Shown: in pieces, positions 48,139 through 64,000 of the stretch
Numbering within the stretch: the stretch's first letter is position 1
Layout: each line of letters starts with the position of its first letter
Assembly: GCA_965249275.1 (NCBI GenBank)
Contig: CBDFLQ010000006.1
Coordinates: forward strand, 640,434-704,433
Origin: Dehalococcoidia bacterium
GTDB taxonomy: Bacteria > Chloroflexota > Dehalococcoidia > Plut-88900
Direction of reading: 5' to 3'
DNA: 64,000 bases
The notes under the pieces: model-generated
What the model was told of the DNA's origin: nothing
Database searches by the model: none
The model's input: only the letters and a program-made list of their open reading frames with translations
Made by a program: the position numbers and the translations under genes

Positions 48139-48152
48139 GAACGGCAATCGTC

Positions 48153-49340
48153 ATGCGATTCGACAGCAACGTCTTCTACCACCCTCTGCAGGTCTACCCC
48201 GTGGACCGGATGCTGGACGAGTGGCGGCAGACTGTGAAGCTCTACGATCAGACCGGTTTCACCGGAGTTTGGATCGGGGAGCACCACTTCTGGCACTCGG
48301 GGTTCCACGTGGCTGCACCGAGCCCCGTGCAGGTATGCACCCACCTGGCCTCGATCACCGAGCGGCTGCGCGTCGCCCAGAGCGCCTGCATCCTCCCCGA
48401 CTACCACCCCATCCGGCTGGCCGAGGAGCTGGCCATGCTCGACCAGATGACCAAGGGTCGGCTAGACGTGGGCGTGGCACGGGGCACCAACAGCCCCGCC
48501 TGCATCCAGTTCAATATCGACGCCGACCGCCGCAACAAGGATCGCAACTACGCCCTGTTCAAGGAGACCCTGGAAATCATGATCAAGGCGTGGACCGAAG
48601 ACGCCCTGGTCCACGAAGGCGAGTTCTATACGTTCCCTGTGCCCGGCTGGACTGAGAAAGACCCTCGCATCTACACCGGCGACACTTCGCACTACGGCCC
48701 CAACGGGGAACTCATTGGGCTAGGGGTCGTGCCCAAGCCTTACCAGAAACCCCACCCCCCGATTTACCAGGCAGCGGACTCCACCGAGTCCTATAGGTTC
48801 GCTGCTGAAAAGGGAATTTCGGTCACGGGATTCGGGCGCACTCTCGAGGGGTTGCGGGAGGCGTGGACGGCCTACCGGGACACGGCGTCACGCGTGTCCG
48901 GTCGTGAGATACCGATGGGTGAGACAGCCAACGGCGACACCCTGAACATCATGAGGATGTTCTACATGGCCGAGACCCAGGAACAGGCCGAACAGGAAGC
49001 CCGCGAGGGCATCAACGCCCACTACGAGATCACCTTCGGGCTGAGCCGGAACTGGGGGCGCACCGGGGCAATTGCCAAGGGCGAGGAGATCAGCGCCGAG
49101 CAGATGAACATGGACTGGTTCGACTTCGCCATGTCCAAAGATGTCATCCTCGTCGGCACACCCGAGACCGTCGCCGAGAAAATTGAGAGGCTGCAAAACG
49201 AGCTTAACTGTAGGCACGTCACCCTCTGGCCCAACCCCTCCTTCCTCCCATTCGAAAAGGTGTACCACAGCCTGGTGCTCTTCGCCGAGCGGGTAATCCC
49301 CTACTTTGAAAAGAAGCGGGCACCTGCCCCTGTGGGATAA
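48153..49340 (+). CDS. LLM-class flavin-dependent oxidoreductase (luciferase-like monooxygenase)
   Basis: 395 aa. GVWIGEHHFWHSGF…LDQMTKGRLDVGVARG is typical of the LLM TIM-barrel. Confidence 0.75.
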   Translation: MRFDSNVFYHPLQVYPVDRMLDEWRQTVKLYDQTGFTGVWIGEHHFWHSGFHVAAPSPVQVCTHLASITERLRVAQSACILPDYHPIRLAEELAMLDQMTKGRLDVGVARGTNSPACIQFNIDADRRNKDRNYALFKETLEIMIKAWTEDALVHEGEFYTFPVPGWTEKDPRIYTGDTSHYGPNGELIGLGVVPKPYQKPHPPIYQAADSTESYRFAAEKGISVTGFGRTLEGLREAWTAYRDTASRVSGREIPMGETANGDTLNIMRMFYMAETQEQAEQEAREGINAHYEITFGLSRNWGRTGAIAKGEEISAEQMNMDWFDFAMSKDVILVGTPETVAEKIERLQNELNCRHVTLWPNPSFLPFEKVYHSLVLFAERVIPYFEKKRAPAPVG

Positions 49341-49412
49341 ACCTGCAAATCAACACCGCCAAATATTTGTTAGAGACAACTTAGAAAATCTGGAAAAGGG
49401 AGACCAAAGTTC

Positions 49413-50411
49413 ATGGCTGACGATCGAGTCCTGATAGTAGACGGAGCACAGCACCACAAGTGGACCCAAGAGACCTTTGAGGACATCCGCCAAGGCGACA
49501 TCAGCGCGGTCAACATCACGCTTGCCATCTGGGAAAACGCCCGCGAGACCCTCGCCGAGATCGGGCAATGGTACCGCCGCTTCGACCAGTTCTCGGACCT
49601 CATAATGCCCGTCTACACCTCGGACGACATTAGGGCTGCCTATAAGGCCAAGAAAACCGGAATACTCTTCGGCTTTCAGAACACCTCTCCCCTCGAAGAC
49701 AACATCGAGTTTGTAGCAGTCTTCGCCAAGCTCGGCGTCCGGGTTATGCAGCTCACCTATAACACTCAGAACCTGATCGGCTGCGGTTGCTACGAGCCCA
49801 ACGACAGCGGTCTCACCTACTTCGGAGCGGACGTGATCGCCGAGATGAACCGGCACGGCGTCGTCATTGACCTCTCCCACACCGGCGAACGGACTTCAAT
49901 GGACGCCATCGAGGCCTCTACGCAGCCGGTGGCCATCACCCACGCCAACCCGACCTGGTGGAAGGACGTCCAGCGCAACAAGTCGGATGACATGATGAGG
50001 GCCCTTGCTGAGAACGGCGGCGTGATGGGCCTGGGCACCTACCCAAACCTCTTCGCCCCCGATGGAACCCTGGAGCAGTTCTGCGACATGGTCGCCCGCA
50101 CCGTCGACTTCATGGGCATCGACCATGTGGGTCTCGGCAGCGACCACAACACAGGCTTCCTCCCCGACGAAAAGCGCTACTGGGCCCGTGGCCGCTGGTC
50201 GCGGGAAGTGCCAAAGTTCATGAGCGCCAAGGGCTTCCACAGCCCCAAGTGGCCCCAGGTCGACTGGCCCGAATGGTGTGAGAAACCCTCGGGCATCGGG
50301 CTCATCCCCAATGGCCTCCGGGAGCACGGCTTCAACAATGAAGAGGTCTCCAAGATCATGGGCGGCAACTACCTGCGGGTGTTCGACCAGGTATCCGCAG
50401 CCGCGAGCTAG
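49413..50411 (+). CDS. Membrane (renal) dipeptidase, peptidase family M19
   Basis: 332 aa. M19 blocks FGFQNTSPLE, VMQLTYNTQNLIGCGC, VVIDLSHTGERTSMDA and HVGLGSDHN are present. Confidence 0.75.
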   Translation: MADDRVLIVDGAQHHKWTQETFEDIRQGDISAVNITLAIWENARETLAEIGQWYRRFDQFSDLIMPVYTSDDIRAAYKAKKTGILFGFQNTSPLEDNIEFVAVFAKLGVRVMQLTYNTQNLIGCGCYEPNDSGLTYFGADVIAEMNRHGVVIDLSHTGERTSMDAIEASTQPVAITHANPTWWKDVQRNKSDDMMRALAENGGVMGLGTYPNLFAPDGTLEQFCDMVARTVDFMGIDHVGLGSDHNTGFLPDEKRYWARGRWSREVPKFMSAKGFHSPKWPQVDWPEWCEKPSGIGLIPNGLREHGFNNEEVSKIMGGNYLRVFDQVSAAAS

Positions 50412-50537
50412 CGGTTTTCGGGTGACGGTAGGTCAGGTAGGGAACGTGCCTGTCCACCGCGACCGGCGGGACTTCGTCATCCAGCCCGGTGACTCCGGCA
50501 AGCCGGAGGACTATCCGGTGAACCCAGCTTATCGAAA

Positions 50538-51608
50538 TTGACCTATCCAGGGGATGCTATGGCTGACAGTATTAGCTTGATGGCCCATTTAGTTCCACGA
50601 CTAACTATACAAGTCGAGAATGCCGCTACCGACGCATTGGCCTATATCCTGAACAACTCCACCCAGTGTATGCAGGCGTTGAACGACCTGCTCCAAGAAG
50701 ATGGCTTTGACATTAAGCCGGTTGCCAGGGTGGAAACCCAGGTAACCTACGAGGGTGGTTATCGGCCTGACATGGCAGGCTACGACAAGACCAATGTAGC
50801 ACGCCTCCTTGTCGAGGCGAAGTTCTGGACCGCACTCGATGAAGGCCAAGCCAGCGGTTACGCCCAACTGTTCGAACAACCCGGCCTGGCGGCACTCCTG
50901 TTCATCGGGCCCGAAATCAGAATTCCGACGCTGTGGGCTGAGATAGAGCGGCAGATGGCAAAGGAGAGCAGACTGGAACCCGTCGAATCACCTCCGGGAG
51001 TCCGGAGGGCCAGGGTGACTTGGACGGAACCGAGTGACACGGAACTACATTTAGTGCTGGTAAGCTGGGTCCGATTGCTTGACAGGATGGACGCTCTCGC
51101 TAACGGTGATGATGTCAAATCGGATATACGACAACTTCGAGGCCTCGCCCATGAGCAGGGCGATCAACTCTTCCTGCCGATTCGTTCCGAAGAGCTGAGC
51201 CCCAGCCTTGCGCGCCGTGTAGTTTGGTACAGGCGGCTTGTCGACGATACCGTCGATGCCCGAGGTGTCTCAGAAGGCTGGATGGATATCAAAGGCCTAC
51301 GTGCAACGGCGCAGTGGTTCGGGTACGGGCGGTGGATCCGCTTCTCCGGTGTGGAAAGTAATTTCTGGTTCGGAGTCAACCATGAACGGTGGGCTGGGAA
51401 CGGGGACACTCCTCTATGGCTCTCCGTTTCTGACAGGAATCATGTGAGCATGGATGAGATCGGCAGGGAACTAGGGGTGCGAATTCACAACGAGTGGGTC
51501 CCAATCCATCTCAAAACGGGCGTAGAGTACGACAAGGTCCTGGATGATGTGGTATCGCAGCTGAAGATGATAGCTAAGATTGCAGGGGTTCATCAAACCA
51601 GTGAGTAA
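50538..51608 (+). CDS. Hypothetical protein with an N-terminal PD-(D/E)XK nuclease-fold motif set; orphan, lower GC
   Basis: 356 aa. Residues about 66-96 read VETQVTYEGGYRPDMAGYDKTNVARLLVEAKFW, giving E…PD…EAK in canonical spacing. The C-terminal 230 aa are unrecognised. GC is about 55%, against about 63% in flanking genes. Confidence 0.45.
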   Translation: MTYPGDAMADSISLMAHLVPRLTIQVENAATDALAYILNNSTQCMQALNDLLQEDGFDIKPVARVETQVTYEGGYRPDMAGYDKTNVARLLVEAKFWTALDEGQASGYAQLFEQPGLAALLFIGPEIRIPTLWAEIERQMAKESRLEPVESPPGVRRARVTWTEPSDTELHLVLVSWVRLLDRMDALANGDDVKSDIRQLRGLAHEQGDQLFLPIRSEELSPSLARRVVWYRRLVDDTVDARGVSEGWMDIKGLRATAQWFGYGRWIRFSGVESNFWFGVNHERWAGNGDTPLWLSVSDRNHVSMDEIGRELGVRIHNEWVPIHLKTGVEYDKVLDDVVSQLKMIAKIAGVHQTSE

Positions 51609-51676
51609 CCGCCTACCGGATCGGGCCCCGGAGATTAGGCCCGTATGACATCTCTCCGTGAAGGAATCCCCATACC

Positions 51677-52852
51677 TTGAGGTTCGACGGCAACGTCTAC
51701 TACCACCTTCTCGAGCGGTACCCGCCCGACCTGCTGATGGAGGAGTGGCGGGAAGAGGCCACTCTCTTCGACCAGGCGGGCTTCACAACGATATGGATCG
51801 GGGAACAGCACTTCTGGATTGCGGCCCCCAATCCCATCCTCATCAATACGCACCTGGCGACTCACACCAGGCGGCTCAGGGTCGGGCAGAGCGCCTGCGT
51901 CCTCCCCGACTGGCATCCCATCCGCCTCGCCGAGGACCTTGCCCTCCTGGACAACATGACCCGCGGCAGGCTGGACGTCGGCATCGCCCGGGGCGTGAAC
52001 ACCTTGGCCGGGATCACCTTCAACGCCGACGCTGACCGCCGAGACCAGGCTCGGAACTACGCCCTGTTCAGCGAGACCCTGGACGTGCTAATCAAGGCCT
52101 GGACCGAGGTCGCTTTTGTTCATCAAGGCCGGTTCTACAACTTCCCTCCCTCGGGATGGAAAGAGCAAGGACCGCGTATATACTCGGACGATCCGGCGCA
52201 CTACGCGCCGGATGGCGAGATTATCGCCCTCCCCGTGCGCCCGAAGCCCTACCAGAAGCCCCACCCTCCCATCTGGCAGGCCGCCGACTCCACCGCCTCC
52301 TATGCCTTCGCCGCAGAACGAGGCCACGCTACTACCTGTCTCAGCCGCTCCTTCGAAGGTGTCAGGGAAGCCTGGAACACCTACAAGGAAACAGCTTCCC
52401 GCGTCTGGGGTCGGGATGTACCCATGGGCCGAAGCGCCGACGGCAAGACCCTCAACGTCATGCGCACCTGCTACGTCGCCGAGACCCAGGAGCAGGCAGA
52501 ACGCGAGGCCCGAGAAGGAATCAATCGCTGGTACGACGTTACGGTCGGGCTGAACGCCAGCCGGGGGAAGCAGTCGTGTGTAGCATCCTGGGAGACCTTG
52601 CAGGACCGGGACCTCAACGCCGAGTGGTTCGATTTCCTTATGGAGAAAGAGATCATCTGGGTCGGGTCTCCTGAGTACGTAGCCGAGAGAATCGACCACC
52701 TCCGCACCGAGCTTAACTGCGCCCACGTCACCATCTGGCCCAATCCAGTGGGCCTGCCCTATAAAAAAGTGATGCACAGCCTGGAACTCTTCGCCGACCG
52801 GGTCATCCCGATGGTTGAGTCACAGGAGCCCGTGCCCACAACGTCACAATAG
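51677..52852 (+). CDS. LLM-class flavin-dependent oxidoreductase, paralog of the gene at 48153
   Basis: 391 aa with the same block structure (TIWIGEQHFW…LDNMTRGRLDVGIARG). Confidence 0.75.
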   Translation: MRFDGNVYYHLLERYPPDLLMEEWREEATLFDQAGFTTIWIGEQHFWIAAPNPILINTHLATHTRRLRVGQSACVLPDWHPIRLAEDLALLDNMTRGRLDVGIARGVNTLAGITFNADADRRDQARNYALFSETLDVLIKAWTEVAFVHQGRFYNFPPSGWKEQGPRIYSDDPAHYAPDGEIIALPVRPKPYQKPHPPIWQAADSTASYAFAAERGHATTCLSRSFEGVREAWNTYKETASRVWGRDVPMGRSADGKTLNVMRTCYVAETQEQAEREAREGINRWYDVTVGLNASRGKQSCVASWETLQDRDLNAEWFDFLMEKEIIWVGSPEYVAERIDHLRTELNCAHVTIWPNPVGLPYKKVMHSLELFADRVIPMVESQEPVPTTSQ

Positions 52853-52874
52853 TCATAGCAAGAGGTATTGGGAA

Positions 52875-53816
52875 ATGAGCATGGGTACTATAGGCGTAGA
52901 GGTATCGGGGCGGAACGCAACCGAAATCGTCGGACAAATACAACGGCTCGAAGATCTGGGCGTCAAGGCTGCCTGGGCCACCTCGGGCGGGGACGCAGAC
53001 CCGATCACCTTGCTTGCCGTAGCGGCCGTGCAGACCGAGTCCATACTCCTCGGCACATCCATCGTCCCAACCTGGCCCCGCCACCCGATTACCACCGCCC
53101 AGCAGGCAAACGTGCTCGCCAATCTGGCTCCGGGTCGCTTCCGCCTCGGCATCGGGCCAAGCCACTACTCGGAAATGTACGAGCCCTTCCGTTTCAACTT
53201 TCGAAAGCCCCTTACCAACCTGCGGGAATACCTTCGAATCGTGAAACCCTTGATCCAAAAGGGCTCCGTAGACTTCGACGGTGAACAGTACCACGCACAC
53301 GTCGCCGCCTCTGATGCGTTCCCAGGCATGCCCGTCATGGCCTCGGCGCTAAGACCGAAATCCTTTCAGCTCTGCGGTGAGGAAGCCGATGGCGCTATCA
53401 GTTGGGTCTGCCCACTTGCTTACTTGCGAGACACAGCGCTCCCGGCCATGAGGGAAGCAGCCGAAGCCGCCGGACGCCCGACACCCCCGCTAATAGCTCA
53501 CGCTGTCGTCTCGGTCCACGAAAACTACGACGAAGTCAAAGAGGCTGCCCTGGAAGAGATGGCGTACTATCCCACAGCACCCTTCTACCAGCAGATGTTC
53601 GCACTGGCCGGGTACCCCGAGGCCGAGGAGCTTAATGGCTGGAGCGACCGGATGCTCAAGGAGATCGTGGTATCCGGCCCCGAGGATGAAGTCGCACCAA
53701 GGCTGGAACAGTTCTTCGACGCAGGCGCCGGAGAGGTGCTTGTCTCCATCATCCCCGCAGGCCCCGACAAGCGAGCCTCGTGGGAGCGGACGGCCAGACT
53801 CCTGGCGGGTCTTTAG
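52875..53816 (+). CDS. LLM-class F420-dependent oxidoreductase, paralog of the gene at 33184
   Basis: Start placed at the ATG at 52875 (MSMGTIG…), which has an AGAGG ribosome-binding site. RFRLGIGPS and an LLM C-terminus are present. Its stop overlaps the convergent M24 gene end by 4 nt. Confidence 0.75.
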   Translation: MSMGTIGVEVSGRNATEIVGQIQRLEDLGVKAAWATSGGDADPITLLAVAAVQTESILLGTSIVPTWPRHPITTAQQANVLANLAPGRFRLGIGPSHYSEMYEPFRFNFRKPLTNLREYLRIVKPLIQKGSVDFDGEQYHAHVAASDAFPGMPVMASALRPKSFQLCGEEADGAISWVCPLAYLRDTALPAMREAAEAAGRPTPPLIAHAVVSVHENYDEVKEAALEEMAYYPTAPFYQQMFALAGYPEAEELNGWSDRMLKEIVVSGPEDEVAPRLEQFFDAGAGEVLVSIIPAGPDKRASWERTARLLAGL

Positions 53817-54997
53817 TCTTCCCAGTAGGGCGTGTAGCCGGCCGTGGTGAGTCGGTCAAGGCCCGTGGCCGTAACCTGGTACATGTCCTCGACTTTGACG
53901 ACTACTGTTTCCCCGTTCACCTCCACCGAGGTCTCAGGCTCCAGGCAGATCACCATCCCCTCTTCAAGCTGCGCGTCAACCATCATCATGTCCGGGCGAT
54001 AGATGATGGGAAGCTCGCAGGCCCGGAGCCCGGTCCCATGGCCCAGGGAGTAGGGCGTAGTCGGGTAGCCGGACTTTGCCAGCAGGTCGTTGACCGTACG
54101 GTCCAGGTGGGAGACTCGGACGCCGGGCTTGGCCTCGGCCTCCGTGGCCCGGTGAGATTCCATCAGCACCTTCCAGGCCTTCTGCACGAGCGCGGGAGGC
54201 TCACCCACGAAACCCGTCCTGCACATGTCGGAGCCGTACCCGCCTTTTACGTAGCACCCCCAGTCGAACGCCATCGTTCCGCCTTCCTCCATCTTGCTCC
54301 CCCTCGGGAACCAGCCGGCCGTAAGCTGGCTTTCACCCTTGATGCAAACGTTATGGGTGATGAATTCGGCGCCTTGGGCACGCATCGTGCCGTCAATGGC
54401 GGAAAGCACCTCAAAGTCCAGCGCTCCCTCCTGCATCGCCTCCAGTCCAGCGTCCCCTCCCATAGATGCAATCTCCGCGCTGGAGCGGATCAGCTTGATC
54501 TCCTCCGAGTGCTTCACCTGCCGAGCCATGGCCAGCGGCATATAGGCGTCCAAGAAAGTGGCCTCCGACATCATCCGTTTCATCCCGTCCCACAGCTGGA
54601 ACGGCATCGCGTCGACCCCCACCCGCCGTGCCCCGAGGCTCCGTAGCTTGCGCGAAAGAATATCGACCCAGATCTCGGCCTGGGTGATACTGGACACCCA
54701 TGAGGGCGTCGGTACGAACTCCTTGATCCAGGGCAGGTCGGGCATCGGCTTGTCTACCACCCGGTCGACATAGGGAATGTAGAGGTAAGCCTCGCCTTCC
54801 TGCGTCACAATTGCCGCGAACCAGTCGTAGGATTCGCAGATCAGGAAGACACCGAAGTCCGTGGCATAGCGGATGTTATCGTGGCCCATGAGGACGAGGG
54901 CGTCAACGTTGGCGTCCTTCATCACCTGGGCGACCCTCTCGGTGCGGTACTTGCGAAGGCCGTCCCAATCGATATCCGGGTAAGAGTACATGCTCAC
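53813..54997 (-). CDS. M24-family metallopeptidase (creatinase/prolidase-like, Xaa-Pro dipeptidase/aminopeptidase)
   Basis: 394 aa. It has a creatinase-type N-terminal domain and a pita-bread C-domain with metal ligands (DWGCYVKGGYGSDMCRT, HGTGLRACE, EPETS). Confidence 0.75.
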   Translation of the reverse strand: MSMYSYPDIDWDGLRKYRTERVAQVMKDANVDALVLMGHDNIRYATDFGVFLICESYDWFAAIVTQEGEAYLYIPYVDRVVDKPMPDLPWIKEFVPTPSWVSSITQAEIWVDILSRKLRSLGARRVGVDAMPFQLWDGMKRMMSEATFLDAYMPLAMARQVKHSEEIKLIRSSAEIASMGGDAGLEAMQEGALDFEVLSAIDGTMRAQGAEFITHNVCIKGESQLTAGWFPRGSKMEEGGTMAFDWGCYVKGGYGSDMCRTGFVGEPPALVQKAWKVLMESHRATEAEAKPGVRVSHLDRTVNDLLAKSGYPTTPYSLGHGTGLRACELPIIYRPDMMMVDAQLEEGMVICLEPETSVEVNGETVVVKVEDMYQVTATGLDRLTTAGYTPYWED

Positions 54998-55115
54998 CTC
55001 CCGCCAAGTCTTTCTGCCGCTATTCTATGGCTTTTCGACGCCGGAGGGCTAGGCGCGCGGTGATACACTAGCCCCCGAGACCGGTGCGATACCAAAAGCG
55101 CTAAGGAGCATCCAA

Positions 55116-56120
55116 TTGAGCATGGAGGAGCGGGCCCAGAGCATCTACAACGACGCCATCGCCATCGATGGGCTGAACATCAGCAACTGGGAGAGCCCGG
55201 CTGTTTATCAAAGCCTGAGCAACGGCAACCTCACGGCCATCAACGCCACCATCGCCGTCTGGGAGGGTTTCGAGGAGACCATGGACCACGTGGCAGGCTG
55301 GAAGCGCCGTTTCCGAGAGATGCCCGACACCCTCTCCCAGGTCCGGTCGGTGGACGACATATTGCGCGCCAAGGATGAGGGCAAGGTGGGGATAATCCTC
55401 GGGTTTCAGAACGCCTCACCCATCGAGAACAAGCTCGACAGGCTGGAGCTCTTTCACGACTTGGGAGTAAGGGTGATTCAGGTCACATATAACGAAAGAA
55501 ACCTGCTCGGCAACGGCTGCTGGGAACGCACAGACGAGGGTCTTAGCAACTTTGGGGAAGACGCCGTGCGGGAGATGAACCGGCTGGGCATACTCATTGA
55601 CCTCTCCCACGTCGGGGACCGGACCACCCTGGAAACGGCAGAGTTGTCGGATAAGCCGGTTTCGGCCACCCACGCCAATGCCCGCTCCCACTTCGAGCAC
55701 GTCCGCAACAAGACCGACGATGCGCTAAAGCTCATCGCCGAGAAGGGTGGCGTTGTCGGGGCCAACGCGTTCCCGCCCTTCCTGCCCAAGAGCTTCGAGT
55801 CGACCCTATCCGACTACGTGGACGCAATAGACGACCTCGTGGACAGAATAGGAATCGACCACGTTGCCATTGGCACCGACTACACCCAGGACCAATCCAA
55901 CTCCTTCTTCGATTGGCTGTTCTCGCAGCAGGGCACCAAGATTCGTCCCCGCCCCGTTCCCTACCCCTCGCCCCTCCTACACCCCAAGGGCATGGAAACT
56001 CCCGACCGCTTCTCCAACATCGCGCTTGAGCTTCTGAACCGCGGCTACGGCGAAGAGGACATCAGGAAGGTACTGGGTGGTAACTGGGTACGCCTGCTGC
56101 GGGAAGTGTGGGCTGATTAA
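55116..56120 (+). CDS. M19 dipeptidase, paralog of the gene at 49413
   Basis: 334 aa with the same M19 blocks (LGFQNASPIE, VIQVTYNERNLLGNGC, ILIDLSHVGDRTTLE, HVAIGTDY). Confidence 0.75.
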   Translation: MSMEERAQSIYNDAIAIDGLNISNWESPAVYQSLSNGNLTAINATIAVWEGFEETMDHVAGWKRRFREMPDTLSQVRSVDDILRAKDEGKVGIILGFQNASPIENKLDRLELFHDLGVRVIQVTYNERNLLGNGCWERTDEGLSNFGEDAVREMNRLGILIDLSHVGDRTTLETAELSDKPVSATHANARSHFEHVRNKTDDALKLIAEKGGVVGANAFPPFLPKSFESTLSDYVDAIDDLVDRIGIDHVAIGTDYTQDQSNSFFDWLFSQQGTKIRPRPVPYPSPLLHPKGMETPDRFSNIALELLNRGYGEEDIRKVLGGNWVRLLREVWAD

Positions 56121-56290
56121 GCCATAATCGCCGGGCGTGACGCGTTTCGGGCCCCAGGGTCCGCTGACACGGACCGCGAAGGGGATTAGGCCCAGATGAT
56201 GTACTGCCGCCGAGCCAGGCGCAGGCGACGGCGGCAATCTAGTCCGAATCGGTAAATAAGCCGGTACTATACCTCTTAGGCGGTCCACAT

Positions 56291-57520
56291 TTGAACCAAA
56301 ACGCTCCACCCACCGGGCGGCGCTTGCTCGTGATCGGCTCCCTGACCTCGGGCCACGCCATCAGCTTCTCCACGATAATCACCATTGGGCTGCTGCTACC
56401 CTATATTGCCTCAGACCTGGACCTGTCTCCCTTGGAACAGGGTGTGCTGGGCGCCTCGGCAACCCTGGCGGTTCTCTTCCTGAACATACCAACGGCCTGG
56501 ATTGCATCCCGATACCGGCCCTGGAGAGTCGCTAGCCTGGGGTTGATGATCGTGGCCGGGTTCACGTTGTTGCAAGGCTGGGCCCCGGGCTTCGTTCTCC
56601 TCCTCTTGGGAAGGTTCGGCATGTCCATTGCCTTTGCCCAAACTGAGGCCGCTACCGCCTTGTTGGTGCAGCAATGGTCGACCCGCAGGCAGGTTGCCCC
56701 GACTAACGGCATGATGATCTCCGGCGGAGACATAGTAATCGGCATCGCATTGCTGATGACGCCTTATCTCATCGATTGGCTGGGCGGATGGCGAAACGTC
56801 ATGTACATGTGGGCGGGCCTTAGCTTTCTCGCCGCGGCCTCCTGGATGGTGCTGGGAGGAGAACGGCAGACCCCCGATTACGTCGAGCGGTTCCGTTCTC
56901 AACAGGGAAACCCTCTTGCCAGCATTGTCAAATACAAGGAGCTTTGGATCTTGGGCGTGGGTATGGCGGGTGGGTTGGCCATGGAGAGCGCTTACACCAT
57001 ATTCTGGCCGACCTTCGCACAGCAGGAAATGTCGGTCGACCCAAAGATTGTCGGGCTTGGGATGGGCTTGTACATGTTCGCCGCCGCTCCCGCCGAGCTG
57101 CTTGTCGTGTCCCTGCGCTTTCTTCAGAACAGGCAACTGACAGTGATGGCGGTGACCGGGGTGGTGACGATGGGCACACACATGGCCTTACTCTTCACCG
57201 GGTCGGAGGTACTGATAGTCCTCATCAACATATTCCGTGGGTTTTCCATCTGCTACTTCCCGGTAATCGTCACTATGGTCTACCAGTTGCCCGGCATCCG
57301 GCCCCGAGAAGTGGCCATAGGACTGGCTTTCATCTACACCGTGATGAACGCGGGCTCAGCCATAGGGCCCCTGATCGTCGGCGGTATCGTGCAGGTAACT
57401 GGCGATCTGCAGATGGCCCTCTTCGTCACAACGCTGCTCCCCTTGTCTCTCGTAATGTCAGCCTTGCTGCTGAAACCGAGGATCGGCCGCCACTTAAGCG
57501 AGGAATCCGCGTTGACGTAG
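56291..57520 (+). CDS. MFS transporter
   Basis: 409 aa with about 12 predicted TM spans. The ORF begins at TTG and the true start is uncertain. Confidence 0.7.
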   Translation: MNQNAPPTGRRLLVIGSLTSGHAISFSTIITIGLLLPYIASDLDLSPLEQGVLGASATLAVLFLNIPTAWIASRYRPWRVASLGLMIVAGFTLLQGWAPGFVLLLLGRFGMSIAFAQTEAATALLVQQWSTRRQVAPTNGMMISGGDIVIGIALLMTPYLIDWLGGWRNVMYMWAGLSFLAAASWMVLGGERQTPDYVERFRSQQGNPLASIVKYKELWILGVGMAGGLAMESAYTIFWPTFAQQEMSVDPKIVGLGMGLYMFAAAPAELLVVSLRFLQNRQLTVMAVTGVVTMGTHMALLFTGSEVLIVLINIFRGFSICYFPVIVTMVYQLPGIRPREVAIGLAFIYTVMNAGSAIGPLIVGGIVQVTGDLQMALFVTTLLPLSLVMSALLLKPRIGRHLSEESALT

Positions 57521-57599
57521 GTGAGCCGGGGCAATTCCGCTCCCGTGCGTGGTATAGTCACCCCTCTGACCCACCCATTTTCGCTTTCGGAGGCGCGCC

Positions 57600-57998
57600 A
57601 TGAATGATATCGACAAAGTGCTGGAAACGTGCAAGACCGTCGCCGTGGTGGGCCTCTCCCCCCGCCCCGAACGGGATAGCAACGGCGTAGCGGCATACAT
57701 TCAGGAGCATGGGTACAGGATAATACCTGTGAATCCCGCTACCCAGGAGATTCTCGGAGAGAAATGCTACCCTGACCTCGCCTCCATCCCGGAACCCGTG
57801 GACGTGGTCGACATCTTCCGCCGCTCCGAAGAGGTGCCAACCATCGTCGCCGATGCCATCAAGATCGGGGCCCGGGCCGTATGGATGCAGAAGGGCGTGA
57901 TCAGCGAAGAAGGCGCCTCGGCAGCGCGGGCCGCAGGCCTCACGGTAGTCATGAACGAATGCATTGAATGCGAAGTGCGGGCTCGGGCGGGGGGATGA
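57600..57998 (+). CDS. CoA-binding domain protein (YccU/YneT-like, CoA_binding_2)
   Basis: 132 aa. KTVAVVGLSPRPERDSNGVAAYIQEHGYRIIPVNP and the following …VDVVDIFRRSE… region are typical. Confidence 0.65.
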   Translation: MNDIDKVLETCKTVAVVGLSPRPERDSNGVAAYIQEHGYRIIPVNPATQEILGEKCYPDLASIPEPVDVVDIFRRSEEVPTIVADAIKIGARAVWMQKGVISEEGASAARAAGLTVVMNECIECEVRARAGG

Positions 57999-58027
57999 AT
58001 TGTCGGCAGGTAGGCTTTGCTATAATC

Positions 58028-58036
58028 CTGACTGGG
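58028..58036 (+). promoter_or_regulatory. Extended -10 promoter TGcTATAAT, 42 nt upstream of the 58078 gene
   Basis: Sequence ggctttgctataatcctg. Confidence 0.4.
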
Positions 58037-58077
58037 AATTGGTGCCGGGTGCCTCTGATTAAGGTAGCGAGGTAATT

Positions 58078-58650
58078 ATGCCAAAAGTAATGTTTGACAA
58101 CACTGAGTTTGACAGCTTCCACGAAGCGGTATGTGCCGCTCTATTCGAAAGGTATGGATGGAAATGGGAAAAACCCAGGAAAGCATTGGCGGGATGGTTC
58201 CCTGATTTTCTTCTAAAGGGCGATTCTACCGTATACGTTGAATGTAAAGGGAGTGTTCAATGGGACGAGATTCAATCGCTACCATTGCAAAAATACGAAG
58301 ACGCAATAGGCGGACAACCGTGTGAAGTTCTTCTGATTCTTCAGTCCCCACGGAGGGAGAAGAACACAAGGGGTTTTGTGAATAGCTTCCTTGGGTATCT
58401 ATACGATGGGGATACTTGGTCGTATGCCGCCCTTGGTAGGTGGTCAGGAAGCGTAGGATTTTGCCACAATGCTAACGGTTGGAAAGACCGCATGTCTGGG
58501 CAAAATATCCATGGCTCAATAGGAGATGGGCAAAGACCTGACGTCGATCGGGACTGGCGTGCTGCAACCCATCTAGTGAACGGCAAACGGGTTTCTTTCT
58601 TCAAGCGGGACGTTGATTCAGACATAGAGGAGTGGGAACTCCCCTCTTAG
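58078..58650 (+). CDS. Small orphan protein with a PD-(D/E)XK-like motif set, in a low-GC islet
   Basis: 190 aa. HEAVCAALFERYGW … FPDFLL … VYVECKG gives E…PD…ExK in canonical order and spacing. GC is about 45-48%. Confidence 0.4.
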   Translation: MPKVMFDNTEFDSFHEAVCAALFERYGWKWEKPRKALAGWFPDFLLKGDSTVYVECKGSVQWDEIQSLPLQKYEDAIGGQPCEVLLILQSPRREKNTRGFVNSFLGYLYDGDTWSYAALGRWSGSVGFCHNANGWKDRMSGQNIHGSIGDGQRPDVDRDWRAATHLVNGKRVSFFKRDVDSDIEEWELPS

Positions 58651-58668
58651 TCATCTAATTCGTTTCTA

Positions 58669-58872
58669 TCACTTCGGCAGCCCTCGCTCATCGTACAAAA
58701 AGTCCCCGTGTTCAACAGCCGACGGACCATCGCACAACTGTGCGGCGCAGCGTTGCCCTATCTCGTGTAACTCCTGGATTCGGGCTTCAACGATTCTCTG
58801 ACGCTCCATACTCTCCTTGTGTCCAACCTCACAAGGGGTCTCTTCATTATTCGCTTCAAAACTCACGGGCAT
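58669..58872 (-). CDS. Hypothetical small ORF (67 aa from the ATG at 58872), convergent with the 58078 gene
   Basis: ORF only, in the same low-GC islet. Carries three Cys residues. Confidence 0.2.
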   Translation of the reverse strand: MPVSFEANNEETPCEVGHKESMERQRIVEARIQELHEIGQRCAAQLCDGPSAVEHGDFLYDERGLPK

Positions 58873-59041
58873 TTCTCCAAAGTCCAAGCTTTCTAGGCAA
58901 GTCTACTAGATTCTCCAGATTCCCGTTGGACACTATTCGAGTATTTTATGGGCGTTAACCCCACCCCCCAATTGACACCACCACCCCGCTAAAGGTATGT
59001 TTTGTGCCGTTTCCGGCCCGTGCCCCGGGGACGACCTAGCC

Positions 59042-60703
59042 ATGCCTCAAGTAGACGTCATATTCCACAACGGCCCGATTTTAACCGTCGACGCACAGGA
59101 CACGGTCTCCGGGGCCGCGGCGGTGATTGGCAACAAGATCTCCGCCGTAGGTCATGCGGAAGAAGTGCTGGCGTCCAAGGGTGATGGTACCCTCGTCGTA
59201 GACTTGGCCGGGCGAGCCCTCGTCCCCGGCTTCAACGACGCCCACACCCACCTGGAACTCACGAGCCTGGGCCTCGGGCTCGCCGTCAGTTGCCACACCC
59301 CACCCCACGAGAGTATTAAGGACATCCTCACCACCCTGAGTGAGCACGCCGCGGGTGTGCCCAAAGGCGACTGGATCATCGCCCAGGGCAGCCTCTTTCA
59401 GGACATGCGCCTCCGGGAAAAGCGCTACCCCGACCGGCACGATCTGGACCGCGTCAGCGTCGATCATCCCATCCTGTTCAAGACCAGCTACCACATGGTG
59501 ATAGTCAACAGTAAGGTGTTGGAGATCGCAGGTATAACCTCGGATACCCCCGACCCCCAGGGCGGCATCATCGAAAGAGACTCCTCCGGCGAGCCCACGG
59601 GCCGCATGAAGGACATGTATCACCGGCTCCCAGTCCCTATGCCCGACTACGAAACGGTCAAGGACGCCATCCGACGCACCGTCCACGACCGTTTCCTGGC
59701 CAACGGCGTCACCACCGTCCAGGAGATGTCCGAGACCGTGTCGGGCCTCGGGGCCATGCGGGAGCTCATAGACTCCGGCGAGATGCCCCTCAGACTGAGC
59801 GTCTATATCCACGTGCCCGGCACCCTGCCTCTGGACAACGTGCTGAATAACGAGATCGGAGACTTCGAATTCGACGACGCGTGGCTCAGGCTCGGCGGGG
59901 TCAAGTTGTTCATTGACGGCGGGTTTTCCGCAAGGGCCGCCGCCCTCCGGGACCCCTACGAAGGCTACCCCGACATCACCGGCAAGCTCGGATACGAGGA
60001 CCGGGAGCTCAGGAGGATCGTGCGCAAGGTGCACCGGGCCGGACTCCAGCTGCGCATGCATACCAACGGCGACCGAGCCATCAAGCAGCTCATTGATGCC
60101 TTCGAGACGGTGTTCGGAATTCCGGCGGGTGTCGGAGAGGACTGGCCCTACCGACACCGCGCCGAGCACGTAGGCAACGTTCTCCTACGCGACGACCTGA
60201 CCATCTCGCGGCTGGCAAGCGCCAAGATTCTGCCGGTACCCAACCCTGCATTCATCTACAGCGTCGCCGAGTTTGTTGCCCCATATCTCGGCCCGGAGCG
60301 GAGCCATCCATCCTTCCGATTCAGGACCCTTTTGGACGCCGGGTTCCGAGTTCCGGGCAGCTCGGACTGCACGGGCACCGACCCGTGGCTCGTCAACCCC
60401 ATGTTCGGCATCTGGTGCATGGTCAACCGTCGCACCTACTCCGGAGACCTGTTGGAACCCGAGGAAAAGGTCTCCGTCGCCGAGGCCATACGCATTTACA
60501 CCTACAATTCCGCCTACGCCGAATTCCAGGAAGAGGTCAAAGGGTCCATCGAGGAAGGGAAGCTGGCCGACCTCGTGGTGCTTGACCGTGACCCGATCAC
60601 CGCGCCGGAAGAGACGTTGAAGGACATACGCGTCGACCAAACATGGGTAGACGGCAAGCTAGTTTTCAGTAGAGACCCGAATGAGGAGAGCAGCAATGGG
60701 TGA
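59042..60703 (+). CDS. Amidohydrolase-3 (PF07969) family metal-dependent hydrolase
   Basis: About 553 aa. The N-terminal HxH (FNDAHTHLE) and an Amidohydro_3 C-terminus are present. An upstream in-frame ATG at 58997 is an alternative start. Confidence 0.7.
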   Translation: MPQVDVIFHNGPILTVDAQDTVSGAAAVIGNKISAVGHAEEVLASKGDGTLVVDLAGRALVPGFNDAHTHLELTSLGLGLAVSCHTPPHESIKDILTTLSEHAAGVPKGDWIIAQGSLFQDMRLREKRYPDRHDLDRVSVDHPILFKTSYHMVIVNSKVLEIAGITSDTPDPQGGIIERDSSGEPTGRMKDMYHRLPVPMPDYETVKDAIRRTVHDRFLANGVTTVQEMSETVSGLGAMRELIDSGEMPLRLSVYIHVPGTLPLDNVLNNEIGDFEFDDAWLRLGGVKLFIDGGFSARAAALRDPYEGYPDITGKLGYEDRELRRIVRKVHRAGLQLRMHTNGDRAIKQLIDAFETVFGIPAGVGEDWPYRHRAEHVGNVLLRDDLTISRLASAKILPVPNPAFIYSVAEFVAPYLGPERSHPSFRFRTLLDAGFRVPGSSDCTGTDPWLVNPMFGIWCMVNRRTYSGDLLEPEEKVSVAEAIRIYTYNSAYAEFQEEVKGSIEEGKLADLVVLDRDPITAPEETLKDIRVDQTWVDGKLVFSRDPNEESSNG

Positions 60704-61118
60704 TCAAGAGGAACGAGGCCCCAACCACATCAAGAACTATGCGCTCGGACCCATGCAGCCCTACGGCAACTATCCCCAATCTCTACTGGACACGTTCAGA
60801 GTTAAATCGCTCCTGAGCCCCGGCGCTCACCTAAAGACAGAGGACGCCCACGCCGGCCTGCTCGAAATAGCCCCGGGCACCGACTACGCGGCTCACACTC
60901 ACGCTTGGCCCGAGGCCTACTTTATCATCAAAGGGACCGCGGATTGCGTCTGGGGCGAGGACTCGTTCACCGCAGGCCCCGGCACCATGATTTACGGCGG
61001 GCCCTTTACATCCCACGCCATGGTCATCACCAGTGAAGAACCTCTCCTGACCCTCATTTTCAGCTGGGCCCCGGGCGGCGACAGAAGTGTCTTCGATGAA
61101 GATGGAAAACTAATCTAA
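60696..61118 (+). CDS. Cupin-domain protein
   Basis: About 140 aa. HTHAWPEAYFIIKGTADCVWGE is a cupin motif 1. An ATGGGTGA overlap couples it to the upstream amidohydrolase. Confidence 0.6.
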   Translation: MGDQEERGPNHIKNYALGPMQPYGNYPQSLLDTFRVKSLLSPGAHLKTEDAHAGLLEIAPGTDYAAHTHAWPEAYFIIKGTADCVWGEDSFTAGPGTMIYGGPFTSHAMVITSEEPLLTLIFSWAPGGDRSVFDEDGKLI

Positions 61119-61142
61119 CCAACCTGGAAAAGTAATCGACAA

Positions 61143-62162
61143 ATGAAATTCAGCTACTACCTGCCCTGCTACTACACGGACAAGTCCAAACCCGCTTCCG
61201 AGCTCTACTCCGAGGCCGAATACCAGGCCCAATACGCCGAAGAACTCGGTTACGACGCCATCGTCATACCCGAGCACTATTTCATGAACTACCTGGCCTG
61301 CCCGAACTTGCTTATGTTCGCGGTCAGGATCTCGCAGCTGGTGAAGCTGCGGATCATGTCGGCGGTCATACCCATCCCCTTGTACCATCCGCTTAGGCTT
61401 GCCCAGGACATCGCCTTCGCCGACGTGCTGTCGGGAGGCAGGCTGGAGATCGGTCTGGGACGCGGGGCCTTCGTCCACGAGTTTGAGCGGCTGCAGATAC
61501 CCCGTGACCAGAACCGGGCAATGTTCAACGAATGCCTCGAAATCATGATCAAGGCCTGGACCTCGGAGAATGACTTCTCATACGAGGGAGACTTCTGGCA
61601 ATTCCCGGAGACTACCGTCCTCCCCCGACCCCTCCAGCAGCCCCACCCCCCGATCTGGATGTCGGGCCAGTCCGACCTCTCGGTCCAGTACGCCGTGTCC
61701 CACGGTTACAAGCTGATGAATACCCCATTGCGGAGCGGGTTCGAGGCACTGGAGGAAACCTACGAGGTCTACTCAGATGCGCTCGAAGAGCGGGGCAGAA
61801 CGGAAGAGGAGTGCCCACTCCTGATTCTTCGTAACGCCTTCGTCTCCGAGGACAAGGATGTCCTCGAACGGCAGGCTCAGAACCTGCACCTTAACCACCA
61901 GCAATTCGTGACCGTGTACACAGGCCCGAGCGTCGTAAAGGAAGGCATGATTGAGCCGCAGAACGTCCCCTACGAGCCGTGGGAGGTGTTTGACAACGTC
62001 ATAAGCGGCACTCCCGACGAGGCGATTCAGAAGGTCGAGCAGTACCGAGACCTGGGGATCAAGTATCTCTGCGTGAACATGGGCTTTGGCGGCAGCCACG
62101 AGGAAGTGATGGAATCCATGCGCCTCTTCTCAGAACAGGTGATGCCCCACTTCCCGGACTAA
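61143..62162 (+). CDS. LLM-class flavin-dependent oxidoreductase
   Basis: 339 aa. DAIVIPEHYFMNYLACPNLLMF…GRLEIGLGRGAFVHE is LLM-like. Confidence 0.75.
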   Translation: MKFSYYLPCYYTDKSKPASELYSEAEYQAQYAEELGYDAIVIPEHYFMNYLACPNLLMFAVRISQLVKLRIMSAVIPIPLYHPLRLAQDIAFADVLSGGRLEIGLGRGAFVHEFERLQIPRDQNRAMFNECLEIMIKAWTSENDFSYEGDFWQFPETTVLPRPLQQPHPPIWMSGQSDLSVQYAVSHGYKLMNTPLRSGFEALEETYEVYSDALEERGRTEEECPLLILRNAFVSEDKDVLERQAQNLHLNHQQFVTVYTGPSVVKEGMIEPQNVPYEPWEVFDNVISGTPDEAIQKVEQYRDLGIKYLCVNMGFGGSHEEVMESMRLFSEQVMPHFPD

Positions 62163-62540
62163 GCTCTGTTAACTCCCAGACCCAACCGCCTAAGGGCACA
62201 ATCCCATTATTTCGCATACGCCCTGTTCGATCCACAAAGCAAAATGCTTGGGTCGAGCTGAACGACCGGCGCAAGAGGCCCGACGCTCTCCTCGGTAACT
62301 CCGTAGGCGATGGGGAAGGTGAGTTCCTCTTCTTCAGCCATCCGAGCCGCCGTCTCACGGTCCTCTATCGTCGCCCCGATTACTCATATTCCCAGCTGGT
62401 CCAACTCCTCGCGGCTTCTCTCGTAGGAGGCTAACTACATCCTGCTTTAGGTTCACCTCTCGCCCATATAGAACAGCAGGGCAATCTAAACTCCAAATCA
62501 AGGCCCCAGAACCGGAATGAAATCCCAATATCAACACAAC

Positions 62541-62567
62541 TTGGTAATGAGGCTGGTCGTGTATAAT
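62541..62567 (+). promoter_or_regulatory. Candidate sigma70-type promoter (TTGGTA-N15-TATAAT) upstream of the grdB-like gene
   Basis: Sequence cttggtaatgaggctggtcgtgtataatgcc. A GAGGGA ribosome-binding site lies about 9 nt upstream of the ATG at 62609. Confidence 0.35.
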
Positions 62568-62608
62568 GCCAACCGGAAGCCGAGCCCCGGAATGGGTGTA
62601 TTTCAAGC

Positions 62609-63937
62609 GTGACGAGGGAGCAGGCCATGACAAATTTGAAGGTAGTCCACTATCTGAACCAGTTCTTCGCCGGTGTGGGTGGTGAAGAGAAGGCCGACGT
62701 TGGCCCCGGAGCCCGGGAAGGCGCAGTCGGACCCGGCATGGCGCTGAACCAGGCCCTTGGAGACGCCGGTGAGGTCATCGGCACCGTCTACTGCGGCGAC
62801 AACCACATCTCCGAAAACCCCGAAACGGCGACCCAGGAGGTCGTCGAGCTTATATCTCAGTTCAAACCCGATATCGTGATTGCCGGGCCGGGATTCGGCT
62901 CCGGACGGTACGGATTGGCCTGTGGTCAGGTATGCCTGGCAGTTAAAGAGAATCTCAAAATCCCTGCCCTTACCGGCGTCCACAAGGAGAGCCCCGCTGC
63001 CGAGACCTACAAGGGTAAAGTCCTGATGGCCTCCACCAAGGACTCGGCTGCCGGTATGGTCGAGGCAATGACTGTAATCGCACGGCTCGCCTCCAAGCTG
63101 GCCGACAAAGAAGAGTTGGGTCCGGCCATGGAAGAAGGCTACCTACCCACCGGACGACGCGTTAACCGATTCTCCGACAAGACTGCTGCGGAGCGGGCGG
63201 TGGACATGTTGATGCGCAAGCTCCGTGGCGAAGACCCGAAGACCGAATGGCCCCTCCCCAAGTACGAGCAAGTTGCTCCCGCTGCGGCCCTCGCCAGTGC
63301 CGGGAACGCCACCATAGCCATCGTCACAGAGGGCGGAATCGTACACCGTGGAAACCCAGAGAAGCTGGAATCGGGCTGGGCCACCAAGTGGGTCAAGTTC
63401 GACACGGCGGAAGAGCCGGAGATGACCCCCGACAAGTTCCAGAGTATCCACGGCGGTTTCGACACCACCACCGCCAGCGCCGAGCCCAACCGCATGGTTC
63501 CACTGGATGCCGCCCGCGAGATGGAGTCCGAGGGGACAATCGGCAAGCTGCACGACTACGTCTACAGCACCACGGGCAACATGGGGCCAATTGCCAGCTT
63601 TAAGCAGTTCGGGGAGGAGATAGCCGCCGAGCTAACCTCGGCGGGCGTCCAGGGAGTGATTCTAACCGCAACCTGAGGCACCGGAACGCGTAGCGGCGCT
63701 ACGCTTCAGAAAGAGCTTGAGAGGGCTGGCCTCCCGACCGCTCTCGTAACCACCCTGTTCAATCTCGCAGAGGGAGTCGGGGCCAGCCGTATCGTCAAAG
63801 GCAAGGCTATCCCACACCCTCTCGGAGACCCGAGCCAGACCTACGAGGGCGAAAAGCAACTGCGTAAGGAGATGCTGAAGAAGGCCCTGGAGGCCCTGGA
63901 GACCGAGGTCGCATCCCCCACGGTTTTCACTACCTAG
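62609..63937 (+). CDS. Glycine/sarcosine/betaine/D-proline reductase selenoprotein B family (GrdB/GrdF/GrdH-like). The in-frame TGA at 63674-63676 is read as selenocysteine (residue 356 of 442).
   Basis: The N-terminus KVVHYLNQFFAGVGGEEKADVGPGAREGAVGPGMA matches the GrdB-family start as recalled. Translation continues in frame after the TGA for 86 codons of clearly protein-like sequence (UGTGTRSGATLQKELERAGLPTALVTT…IPHPLGDP…) to the TAG at 63935-63937. A hairpin begins 11 nt after the TGA. Confidence 0.6.
63688..63704 (+). promoter_or_regulatory. Candidate bacterial SECIS hairpin (gcgtagc-GGC-gctacgc) beginning 11 nt downstream of the UGA
   Basis: 7-bp perfect stem with a 3-nt G-containing apical loop at the position expected for a bSECIS. 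Confidence 0.4.
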
Positions 63938-64000
63938 CAACTACATCTGTATGACTACCCAATCCCCCGCATTCACAAGCAACGGCCAGGACTCACCACC

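Follow-up and report, generated by a model that had tools for sequence, protein, structure and literature searches.

The 64,000-nucleotide stretch of contig CBDFLQ010000006.1 analysed here (Dehalococcoidia bacterium, assembly GCA_965249275.1; called the window below) carries at its end a gene related to grdB, which encodes selenoprotein B of the glycine, sarcosine and betaine reductases. The locus raises the question of whether the in-frame TGA of this gene is read as selenocysteine (Sec, U) and, if so, what kind of enzyme keeps its Sec when the cysteines that follow it in the family are missing. From the sequence comparisons described below, we give a probability of about 0.72 to the reading that the gene encodes the Sec-containing 'GrdB' subunit of protein B, the substrate-specific component, in a glycine/sarcosine/betaine-reductase-type complex, which would be pyruvoyl-independent and whose host would be a SAR202-like Dehalococcoidia. 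The enzyme probably acts on something other than glycine.

Reading frame and family assignment

The features that carry this reading are the following.

62627 to 63937, plus strand: gene for a grdB-like selenoprotein B, with 436 codons (Sec350 counted) followed by TAG; matches to Pfam GRDB and TIGR01918; GAGGGAG upstream
63674 to 63676, plus strand: in-frame TGA, the putative Sec350 codon, supported by TGA at the aligned position in homologues, by downstream selection and by the hairpin
63674 to 63694, plus strand: motif U-G-T-G-T-R-S in place of the canonical U-G-T-C-T-R-C (codons TGA GGC ACC GGA ACG CGT AGC)
63688 to 63704, plus strand: hairpin of the selenocysteine insertion sequence (SECIS) type, 7-bp stem 63688-63694 / 63698-63704, loop GGC 63695-63697
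63749 to 63751, plus strand: codon of Thr375 (U+25), where 87% of canonical GrdB proteins have a third Cys

The listed open reading frame (ORF), 62609-63676, stops with the TGA at 63674-63676. Past this codon the frame stays open for 86 sense codons, up to the TAG at 63935-63937, and reads GTGTRSGATLQKELERAG...TVFTT. An earlier interpretation made from the letters of the window (the sequence-only reading) had described this extension, together with a GrdB-family identity, a Sec aligned with that of GrdB and a 7-bp hairpin 11 nt past the TGA, and all four were confirmed. The open extension by itself is only mildly improbable at 59% GC. The profile searches are more informative: the NCBIfam model TIGR01918 ('glycine/betaine/sarcosine/D-proline family reductase selenoprotein B', which covers the GrdB/GrdF/GrdH/PrdB subfamily) scored 509 bits (cut-off 65), with residues 5-434 covering positions 1-430 of the 431 in the model, and Pfam PF07355 GRDB scored 451 bits (cut-off 22). 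Since the TIGR01918 match runs end to end, the 86 codons that follow the TGA represent the genuine C-terminus of the family, and the TGA itself aligns with the Sec of canonical GrdB.

The sequence-only reading counted 442 residues with Sec at 356, which is correct from the GTG at 62609. The start is likely to be the ATG at 62627, from which the protein has 436 residues and its Sec at position 350, and the GTG is less probable. A GAGGGAG sequence (62614-62620) lies 6 nt before this ATG and the database homologues are annotated from MTNLKVV, as at this codon. All the database matches examined carry the gene miscalled as a 349-residue protein that ends at the TGA. An exact look-up of the truncated 349-residue and 355-residue products matched no contig, and two close homologues, P0002 and P0003, served in their place.

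Decoding of the TGA as selenocysteine

Comparative analysis strongly supports decoding of the UGA at 63674-63676 as Sec, aided by the hairpin located 11 nt downstream. Four independent lines bear on it: the conservation of the TGA, the ratio of nonsynonymous to synonymous substitution rates (dN/dS), the compensated hairpin, and the use of TGA as a stop in other genes. The aligned codon is TGA in 80 of 80 homologous loci from species-representative genomes, and neither TAA, TAG nor a sense codon occurs there. The metagenome contigs cited below were fetched with a DNA pattern starting with this TGA, so that they show how common the variant is but do not test the codon independently. Among orthologues that are 72-97% identical, dN/dS is 0.00-0.17 in the 84 codons after the TGA and 0.04-0.15 before it (dS up to 1.2-1.5); by this measure purifying selection acts alike on the 86 codons past the TGA and on the 349 that precede it. 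A global reassignment of TGA is ruled out, since this codon is the ordinary stop of 8 of the 38 Pfam-supported genes of the window. A scan of the window for further genes read through TGA gave no convincing candidate besides grdB. Related Dehalococcoidia metagenome-assembled genomes (MAGs), one of which bears a name in the isolate-code style of the relatives compared here, are listed with 46-49 selenoproteins (PMC13326102). Together with the second Sec gene (grdA) of the relatives described below, this speaks indirectly for a Sec-decoding organism.

Stop codon usage in the 38 Pfam-supported ORFs (416-62162) is as follows: 19 end with TAG, 11 with TAA and 8 with TGA. For a genome of 59% GC, this is an unusually high share of TAG and an unusually low share of TGA, which may be tied to UGA being heavily used for Sec in the lineage.

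The hairpin (GCGUAGC-GGC-GCUACGC) is a perfect 7-bp stem that begins exactly 11 nt past the TGA. Its position is kept in 76 non-identical sequences, where 94.5% of the cells are paired, and double changes are found in three of the seven pairs: pair 22-30 (UA in 57 sequences, AU in 17, GC in 1), pair 18-34 (UA in 34, GC in 21) and pair 21-31 (UA in 68, CG in 8). The covariation score is 0.245, against 0.072 +/- 0.011 after shuffling (0 of 500 shuffles reach 0.245) and 0.013-0.084 with slid partners. The codon of the second Cys of the canonical motif falls in the 5' arm of this hairpin, and the change from Cys UGC to Ser AGC is offset by a synonymous change on the 3' arm, from Ala GCA to GCU; in one lineage with Gly (GGC) at the second Cys position, the partner codon is GCC. 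Folded alone, the 73-nt stretch of the TGA region has an energy no better than that of shuffled sequences (minimum free energy z = 0.27). This value is not significant; the support for the hairpin comes from the comparison and not from the folding energy, and by its covariation the hairpin acts like a conserved element of the SECIS type.

Loss of the cysteines around selenocysteine

The motif U-x-x-C-x-x-C, which the sequence-only reading had given for the family, is right for GrdB, GrdF and GrdH according to the full-length database relatives, which read ...LTSTWGTCTRCGATMVKEIERAG... (W being the TGA as translated by the source), and to PMC6778437, which cites Wagner et al. 1999; it is also given in PMC13188914. 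The replacement of both motif cysteines by Gly and Ser was equally well observed. Gly353 and Ser356 are conserved in 100% of the proteins that share the U-G-T-G-T-R-S motif (the UGTGTRS clade), and canonical proteins have Cys at these two positions in 84% and 100% of cases. The description of a 'divergent Sec-only variant' can even be strengthened, because the third Cys (U+25) is lost too and the Sec-bearing segment contains no Cys at all: those of the window protein are only residues 56, 99 and 103, all far from the Sec in the sequence. Residue U+25 is Thr in 106 of 109 metagenome variants (among the matches listed) and in all genome variants. A column comparison detected at least 11 positions conserved in canonical GrdB that are systematically replaced in the clade. 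The chemistry may be altered, as had been supposed.

Position U+26 has a distribution of its own: it is Cys in 80 of 109 environmental UGTGTRS proteins (L086-L205, among the matches listed; L numbers designate related loci) and Thr, Ala or Ser in the lineage of the window. The subclades therefore differ in whether any thiol is left near the Sec.

It is strongly supported by these alignments that the Cys loss is a character of a distinct and widespread clade, and not a single-gene oddity. Among the 80 genome loci, the UGTGTRS proteins form three groups. Orthologues of the window protein, 72-91% identical, make up the one found in Dehalococcoidia MAGs; a further paralogue of these genomes (about 55% identical) makes up another, and the third comes from Acidimicrobiia ('Candidatus Spongiisociaceae' and relatives). 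One sequence from Thermodesulfobacteriota has U-G-S-G-T-R-S, and intermediate motifs are present (U-G-T-G-T-R-C, U-G-T-S-T-R-C, U-G-T-D-T-R-C and U-G-S-C-S-R-G). In a neighbor-joining tree the UGTGTRS proteins of Dehalococcoidia and Acidimicrobiia compose one group, localized beside the U-G-S-C-S-R-G sequence. The DNA pattern of the variant motif recovered at least 120 metagenome contigs, all encoding ...T-U-G-T-G-T-R-S-G-[A/S]-T..., and in 109 of them (among the matches listed) the tail past the Sec is complete, with 77-110 codons. A relative that is 62% identical occurs on Tara Oceans marine contigs under the NCBI name 'SAR202 cluster bacterium'.

The second UGTGTRS paralogue (L083:10001-11056; L006-L012, L014), about 55% identical, is usually alone, with no grdE, grdC or grdA nearby. 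It adjoins an amine-oxidase-like flavoprotein and zinc alcohol dehydrogenases.

For a structural view of the site, the AlphaFold model of a canonical homologue (P0024, predicted local distance difference test score 85) places Sec350 past strand 343-348, where it caps the N-terminus of helix 352-366. Residues C353 and C356 are on the first turns of this helix and C375 closes the strand that comes next (371-375), which suggests that in canonical enzymes three thiols would surround the selenol. No solved relative was detected: Foldseek against the PDB returned generic alpha/beta matches alone (template modelling score about 0.2) and phmmer against the PDB returned none.

GrdE-like partners without a pyruvoyl site

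The window also contains two tandem grdE-like genes, which the sequence-only reading had overlooked.

42993 to 44288, plus strand: grdE/G/I-like gene 1; PF09338, 308 bits; loop FNTPGAVRT, without the Asn-Cys cleavage site
44457 to 45752, plus strand: grdE/G/I-like gene 2, tandem paralogue; PF09338, 294 bits; loop SNYLASART, without the cleavage Cys

The Asn-Cys of GrdE is the self-cleavage site that gives rise to the pyruvoyl group (Bednarski et al. 2001, as quoted in PMC10838667). At this site the canonical GrdE proteins have ...SG-N-C-V-S-A-C-D-K... (aligned GNCVSACDK). The presence of the cleavage Cys in the partner was compared with the motif of the GrdB protein, and the result is given below.

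GrdB motif U-G-T-C-T-R-C (canonical): partner with cleavage Cys in 43 of 47 loci
GrdB motif U-G-T-G-T-R-C: 0 of 8
GrdB motif U-G-T-G-T-R-S, genomes: 0 of 10
GrdB motif U-G-T-G-T-R-S, metagenome contigs: 0 of 45

The cleavage Cys is thus found in none of the 55 GrdE-like partners of the clade, which makes it probable that the enzyme is pyruvoyl-independent.

The two GrdE-like proteins of the window are 74% identical to each other and differ most at the former pyruvoyl loop, as is expected if this loop lines the substrate pocket. This divergence of the tandem paralogues suggests two related substrates sharing one GrdB. The divergence maximum lies at about 43710-43790 and 45175-45255 (approximate coordinates; residues ~240-265).

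Proposed mechanism and comparison with known systems

In the mechanism that we propose, the GrdE-like/GrdB pair would bind a carboxymethyl compound X-CH2-COO-, whose leaving group X would depart without Schiff-base activation. The selenolate of Sec350 would attack the alpha-carbon and displace X, and the carboxymethyl group would be transferred to the Sec of GrdA (CxxU). The resulting selenoether would be resolved by the Cys of GrdA, and GrdC would carry the acetyl unit to an energy-rich acetyl product, the oxidised GrdA being re-reduced by a thioredoxin-type system that would be encoded elsewhere. Because no Cys lies near Sec350, the window GrdB could not form an internal Se-S bond like the one that has been proposed to shield or park the Sec in canonical enzymes.

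Glycine reductase (GrdB/GrdE) and sarcosine reductase (GrdF/GrdG) resemble the window system by the TIGR01918/PF07355 match, by the positions of the Sec and of the SECIS-type hairpin, and by the linked grdC and grdA with CxxU. They differ by U-G-T-C-T-R-C, by the Cys at U+25 and by a GrdE proprotein cleaved at Asn-Cys with a pyruvoyl group, none of which is found here. Their canonical operon also includes grdD, trxB and trxA, which were not found at the UGTGTRS loci or in the window. These canonical features of GrdB/GrdE and GrdF/GrdG reportedly go back to Wagner et al. 1999 and Andreesen 2004.

Two known systems come closer in one respect, since they work with an unprocessed partner. The first is the betaine reductase GrdH/GrdI of Eubacterium acidaminophilum (Meyer et al. 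1995, as quoted in PMC10838667), which is described there as having a Sec B subunit and a pyruvoyl-free partner, a leaving group (trimethylamine) that departs without Schiff base, and GrdA with protein C as further components. GrdH is reported to keep UxxCxxC (PMC6778437), unlike the window protein, which scores only 435 bits on the GrdH model (cut-off 775). The second is FarB/FarE of Cloacibacillus porcorum MFA1 (Synergistota; PMC10838667), where a Sec GrdB homologue without CxxC is associated with an E subunit that lacks both Cys, forms no proprotein and is 'similar to grdI'. About 5000-fold induction of the far operon by fluoroacetate is described in PMC10838667, and fluoride is the leaving group in the proposed fluoroacetate reductase FarBE. 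Like the window system, FarBE is thought to feed GrdA/GrdC, and an MFS transporter is often found nearby. However, on the FarE equivalog model (NF053623, cut-off 675 bits) the window GrdE-like proteins reach only 131 and 113, and they score higher on GrdG, so that on these scores they are not FarE orthologues. There is no radical-SAM farC nearby, and the Far host is an anaerobic rumen bacterium whereas the UGTGTRS proteins come from Dehalococcoidia and Acidimicrobiia with an aerobic-type gene content. The likeness to FarB is drawn from its published description.

The D-proline reductase subunit PrdB is a distant homologue of the C-terminal half of the window protein (TIGR04483, 85 bits, cut-off 300; residues 227-426). 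It is also a selenoprotein of reductive C-N cleavage, but it is much shorter (about 240 residues), it pairs with the pyruvoyl-containing PrdA and it works without GrdA/GrdC.

Gene neighbourhood and other Grd components

The sequence-only reading saw no grdA, grdC, grdD or thioredoxin gene in the window. This stands for grdA, before which the window ends, and for GrdD and TrxB, which were not matched. It does not stand for grdC, of which the beginning is present.

63951 to 64000, plus strand: 5' end of grdC (component C beta subunit); first 16 codons MTTQSPAFTSNGQDSP, cut by the window end

The residues MTTQSPAFTSNGQDSP match the N-terminus of the GrdC protein of L001, which itself scored 668 bits on NF040746 (cut-off 450). 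In L001 (GrdB 97% identical) and in L002 (90%), grdC and then grdA are located directly downstream of grdB, and this order with short spacers was observed in at least five genomes of the window lineage. The grdA gene of L001-L005 (72-97% identical orthologues), two genes downstream of grdB, has its own in-frame TGA within QCFV-TGA-TAAGAMD (C-x-x-U). L084, a 72% identical orthologue, shows a contiguous cluster composed of an MFS transporter, two grdE-like genes, grdB, grdC, grdA(U), a flavoprotein and an amidohydrolase. The locus of the U-G-S-C-S-R-G protein (L209, GrdB 53% identical) has the order MFS-grdC-trxA-grdA-grdE-like-grdB. On the metagenome contigs the usual order is grdE-like then grdB, sometimes with grdC and grdA after them. 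The MFS transporters located beside the different clusters are not orthologous and therefore provide no common clue to the substrate.

In the window, grdB is separated from the grdE-like pair by a block of genes (45847-62162). Its products are one subunit of a molybdopterin hydroxylase, four monooxygenases of the luciferase-like type, two dipeptidases of family M19, an M24 protein resembling creatinase/prolidase, an MFS transporter, a CoA-binding protein, an amidohydrolase and a cupin. Set against the contiguous cluster of L084:7204-11050, the block has either been inserted into a grd operon or forms a functionally linked catabolic island. The nature of the neighbours (dipeptidases, creatinase/ectoine-hydrolase-like M24, EutA-like proteins located downstream in the relatives, homocysteine S-methyltransferase) hints at nitrogen-rich osmolyte-type compounds, and we make no assignment.

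In many loci outside the Bacillota-type operons, grdE, grdB, grdC and grdA occur without an adjacent grdD (L042, L050, L053, L056, L068, L077, L051, L062 and others), including some with canonical UGTCTRC and canonical GrdE; the Bacillota-type operons always have grdD after grdC.

Alternative readings

Several observations count against a pyruvoyl-independent protein B of the Grd type, or leave parts of its pathway without direct support. All the equivalog scores of the window GrdB are below their cut-offs (NF040794 GrdF 510 of 800 bits, TIGR01917 GrdB 472 of 602, NF040795 GrdH 435 of 775), as is the best NCBIfam score of the product of grdE-like gene 1 (GrdG, 221 bits, cut-off 780); as GrdB and its partners are under every equivalog cut-off, no substrate can be assigned by homology. 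Since GrdH is reported to keep UxxCxxC (PMC6778437), the pyruvoyl loss alone does not explain the loss of CxxC. Searches by tblastn with two GrdD proteins gave no match in the window or within 8-10 kb of any UGTGTRS locus, and GrdD is present in 28 canonical loci; likewise, no homologue of thioredoxin reductase (TrxB) was detected in the window or within 8-10 kb of any UGTGTRS locus. The final steps of the canonical pathway are thus unconfirmed at these loci. The grdE-like pair is located about 16.9 kb from grdB, and with such a gap its co-expression with grdB is not assured. The surrounding genes, with luciferase-like monooxygenases among them, point to a host that uses oxygen, an unusual setting for enzymes of the Grd type. 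Finally, selA, selB, selD and tRNA-Sec (searched with ARAGORN) were not found in the 64-kb window or in 20 related loci.

A first alternative is that of an ordinary glycine (or sarcosine) reductase protein B, in which the loss of the cysteines would be neutral and the substrate would still be bound as a Schiff base. The highest of the above equivalog scores are indeed those to GrdF and GrdB, grdC and grdA are linked, the nearby creatinase-like, dipeptidase and amidohydrolase genes could supply sarcosine or glycine, and an FTHFS gene is found near the cluster in relatives. Nevertheless we consider it unlikely, because these scores stay far under the equivalog cut-offs and because there is no pyruvoyl site: both window partners, as well as all 55 partners in the clade, are devoid of the Asn-Cys needed for a Schiff-base-forming pyruvoyl. 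The systematic replacement of canonical positions noted above also argues against this reading.

A second alternative is a stand-alone reductive cleavage as in the D-proline reductase PrdB, where the Sec would attack and an external thiol or reductant would release the product, with no GrdA/GrdC or energy conservation; the linked grdC and grdA would then serve other B modules. Many UGTGTRS loci consist only of grdE-like and grdB genes with no grdC or grdA within several kb, the second paralogue of the same genomes stands alone, GrdD is linked at no UGTGTRS locus examined, and PrdB is homologous (TIGR04483). For the lone paralogues this reading is possible. It fits the window gene poorly, for which we regard it as improbable: grdC and grdA directly follow grdB in the window lineage, PrdB-type chemistry needs a resolving Cys beside the Sec and none exists in the Sec domain here, and several B modules for one A/C set are a known arrangement (PMC10838667).

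The last alternative, a decaying gene where the TGA is a true stop, the 349-residue product is the only one and the downstream frame is a relic, can call on the gene callers that end the protein at 349 residues in all databases, on a UxxCxxC-less copy in strain DCMF called 'likely a pseudogene' (PMC6778437) and on the unexceptional folding energy, but it is hardly credible and is ruled out by the low dN/dS past the TGA, by the tail kept intact in the 109 metagenome contigs (among the matches listed), by the TGA of all 80 genome homologues and by the compensatory changes of the hairpin.

Significance of the UGTGTRS clade

The gene belongs to a known family whose Sec and SECIS have been described, NCBI names the relatives at the family level, and there is one CxxC-less precedent with an unprocessed partner. 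In the literature searched we found no description of the variant in SAR202, in sponge symbionts or in Dehalococcoidia. The size and spread of the clade, the loss of three active-site Cys, the compensated change in the SECIS and the strict co-loss of the partner pyruvoyl Cys appear to be undescribed there. The CxxC after the Sec has so far been treated as required, to the point that one genome paper called a CxxC-less copy a probable pseudogene. A large CxxC-less clade that keeps its Sec under strong purifying selection implies that the CxxC is dispensable for a whole branch of the family. Since its loss accompanies that of the partner pyruvoyl Cys, a testable link appears between the first Cys and the Schiff-base chemistry. 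The clade also places reductive selenoenzymes of the Grd type in the monooxygenase-rich catabolic islands typical of SAR202-like bacteria, and it hints that osmolyte-like or other carboxymethyl compounds may follow a route so far unrecognised, in the ocean and elsewhere in the environment.

More tentatively, the UGTGTRS proteins and their uncleaved partners might together constitute a large family of pyruvoyl-independent selenoenzymes acting on carboxymethyl-X compounds other than glycine, sarcosine and betaine (such as haloacetates, or onium-acetates with sulfonio-acetates among them), in oxygen-exposed marine, sponge-associated and other environmental bacteria. Their Sec would function without a neighbouring thiol, and GrdC without GrdD would deliver the acetyl group by a route other than the classical acetyl-phosphate step, for instance to CoA. 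We hold this wider scheme to be possible, at rather low confidence.

Upstream region and other observations

Upstream of grdB, one weak candidate element was noticed.

62562 to 62567, plus strand: TATAAT hexamer, possible -10 element by sequence, about 60 nt upstream of the start

L001 and L002 have the hexamer at this place too. A promoter and terminator scan of 62100-64000 found no site, the consensus scan gave no full promoter, and the search of the whole window against Rfam gave no match, hence no known riboswitch or other RNA upstream of grdB. The 464-nt spacer that precedes grdB (62163-62626) is 84% identical in L001 and is reduced to 83 nt in L002 and L003. It contains just one minus-strand ORF (62355-62633), with a low GC content at third codon positions (GC3), and nothing in it matches Rfam; the spacer could be what remains of a gene, or a regulatory region not recognised so far.

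The segment 58078-58650 is a 190-residue ORF with a GC3 of 0.47 and no family match, where the relatives have a PIN/PSK toxin-antitoxin pair (L001:5598-6238), which points to a local replacement by foreign DNA. The protein encoded at 27580-28530 has a homocysteine S-methyltransferase domain (PF02574, 175 bits) and may be a betaine-homocysteine methyltransferase, which would fit a metabolism of methylated amines in this region. Directly after grdA, L001:13527-16414 and L002:13380-15036 encode two proteins similar to EutA and arylmalonate decarboxylase (Asp/Glu racemase superfamily) and an Amidohydro_2 protein, and these may be part of the same pathway.

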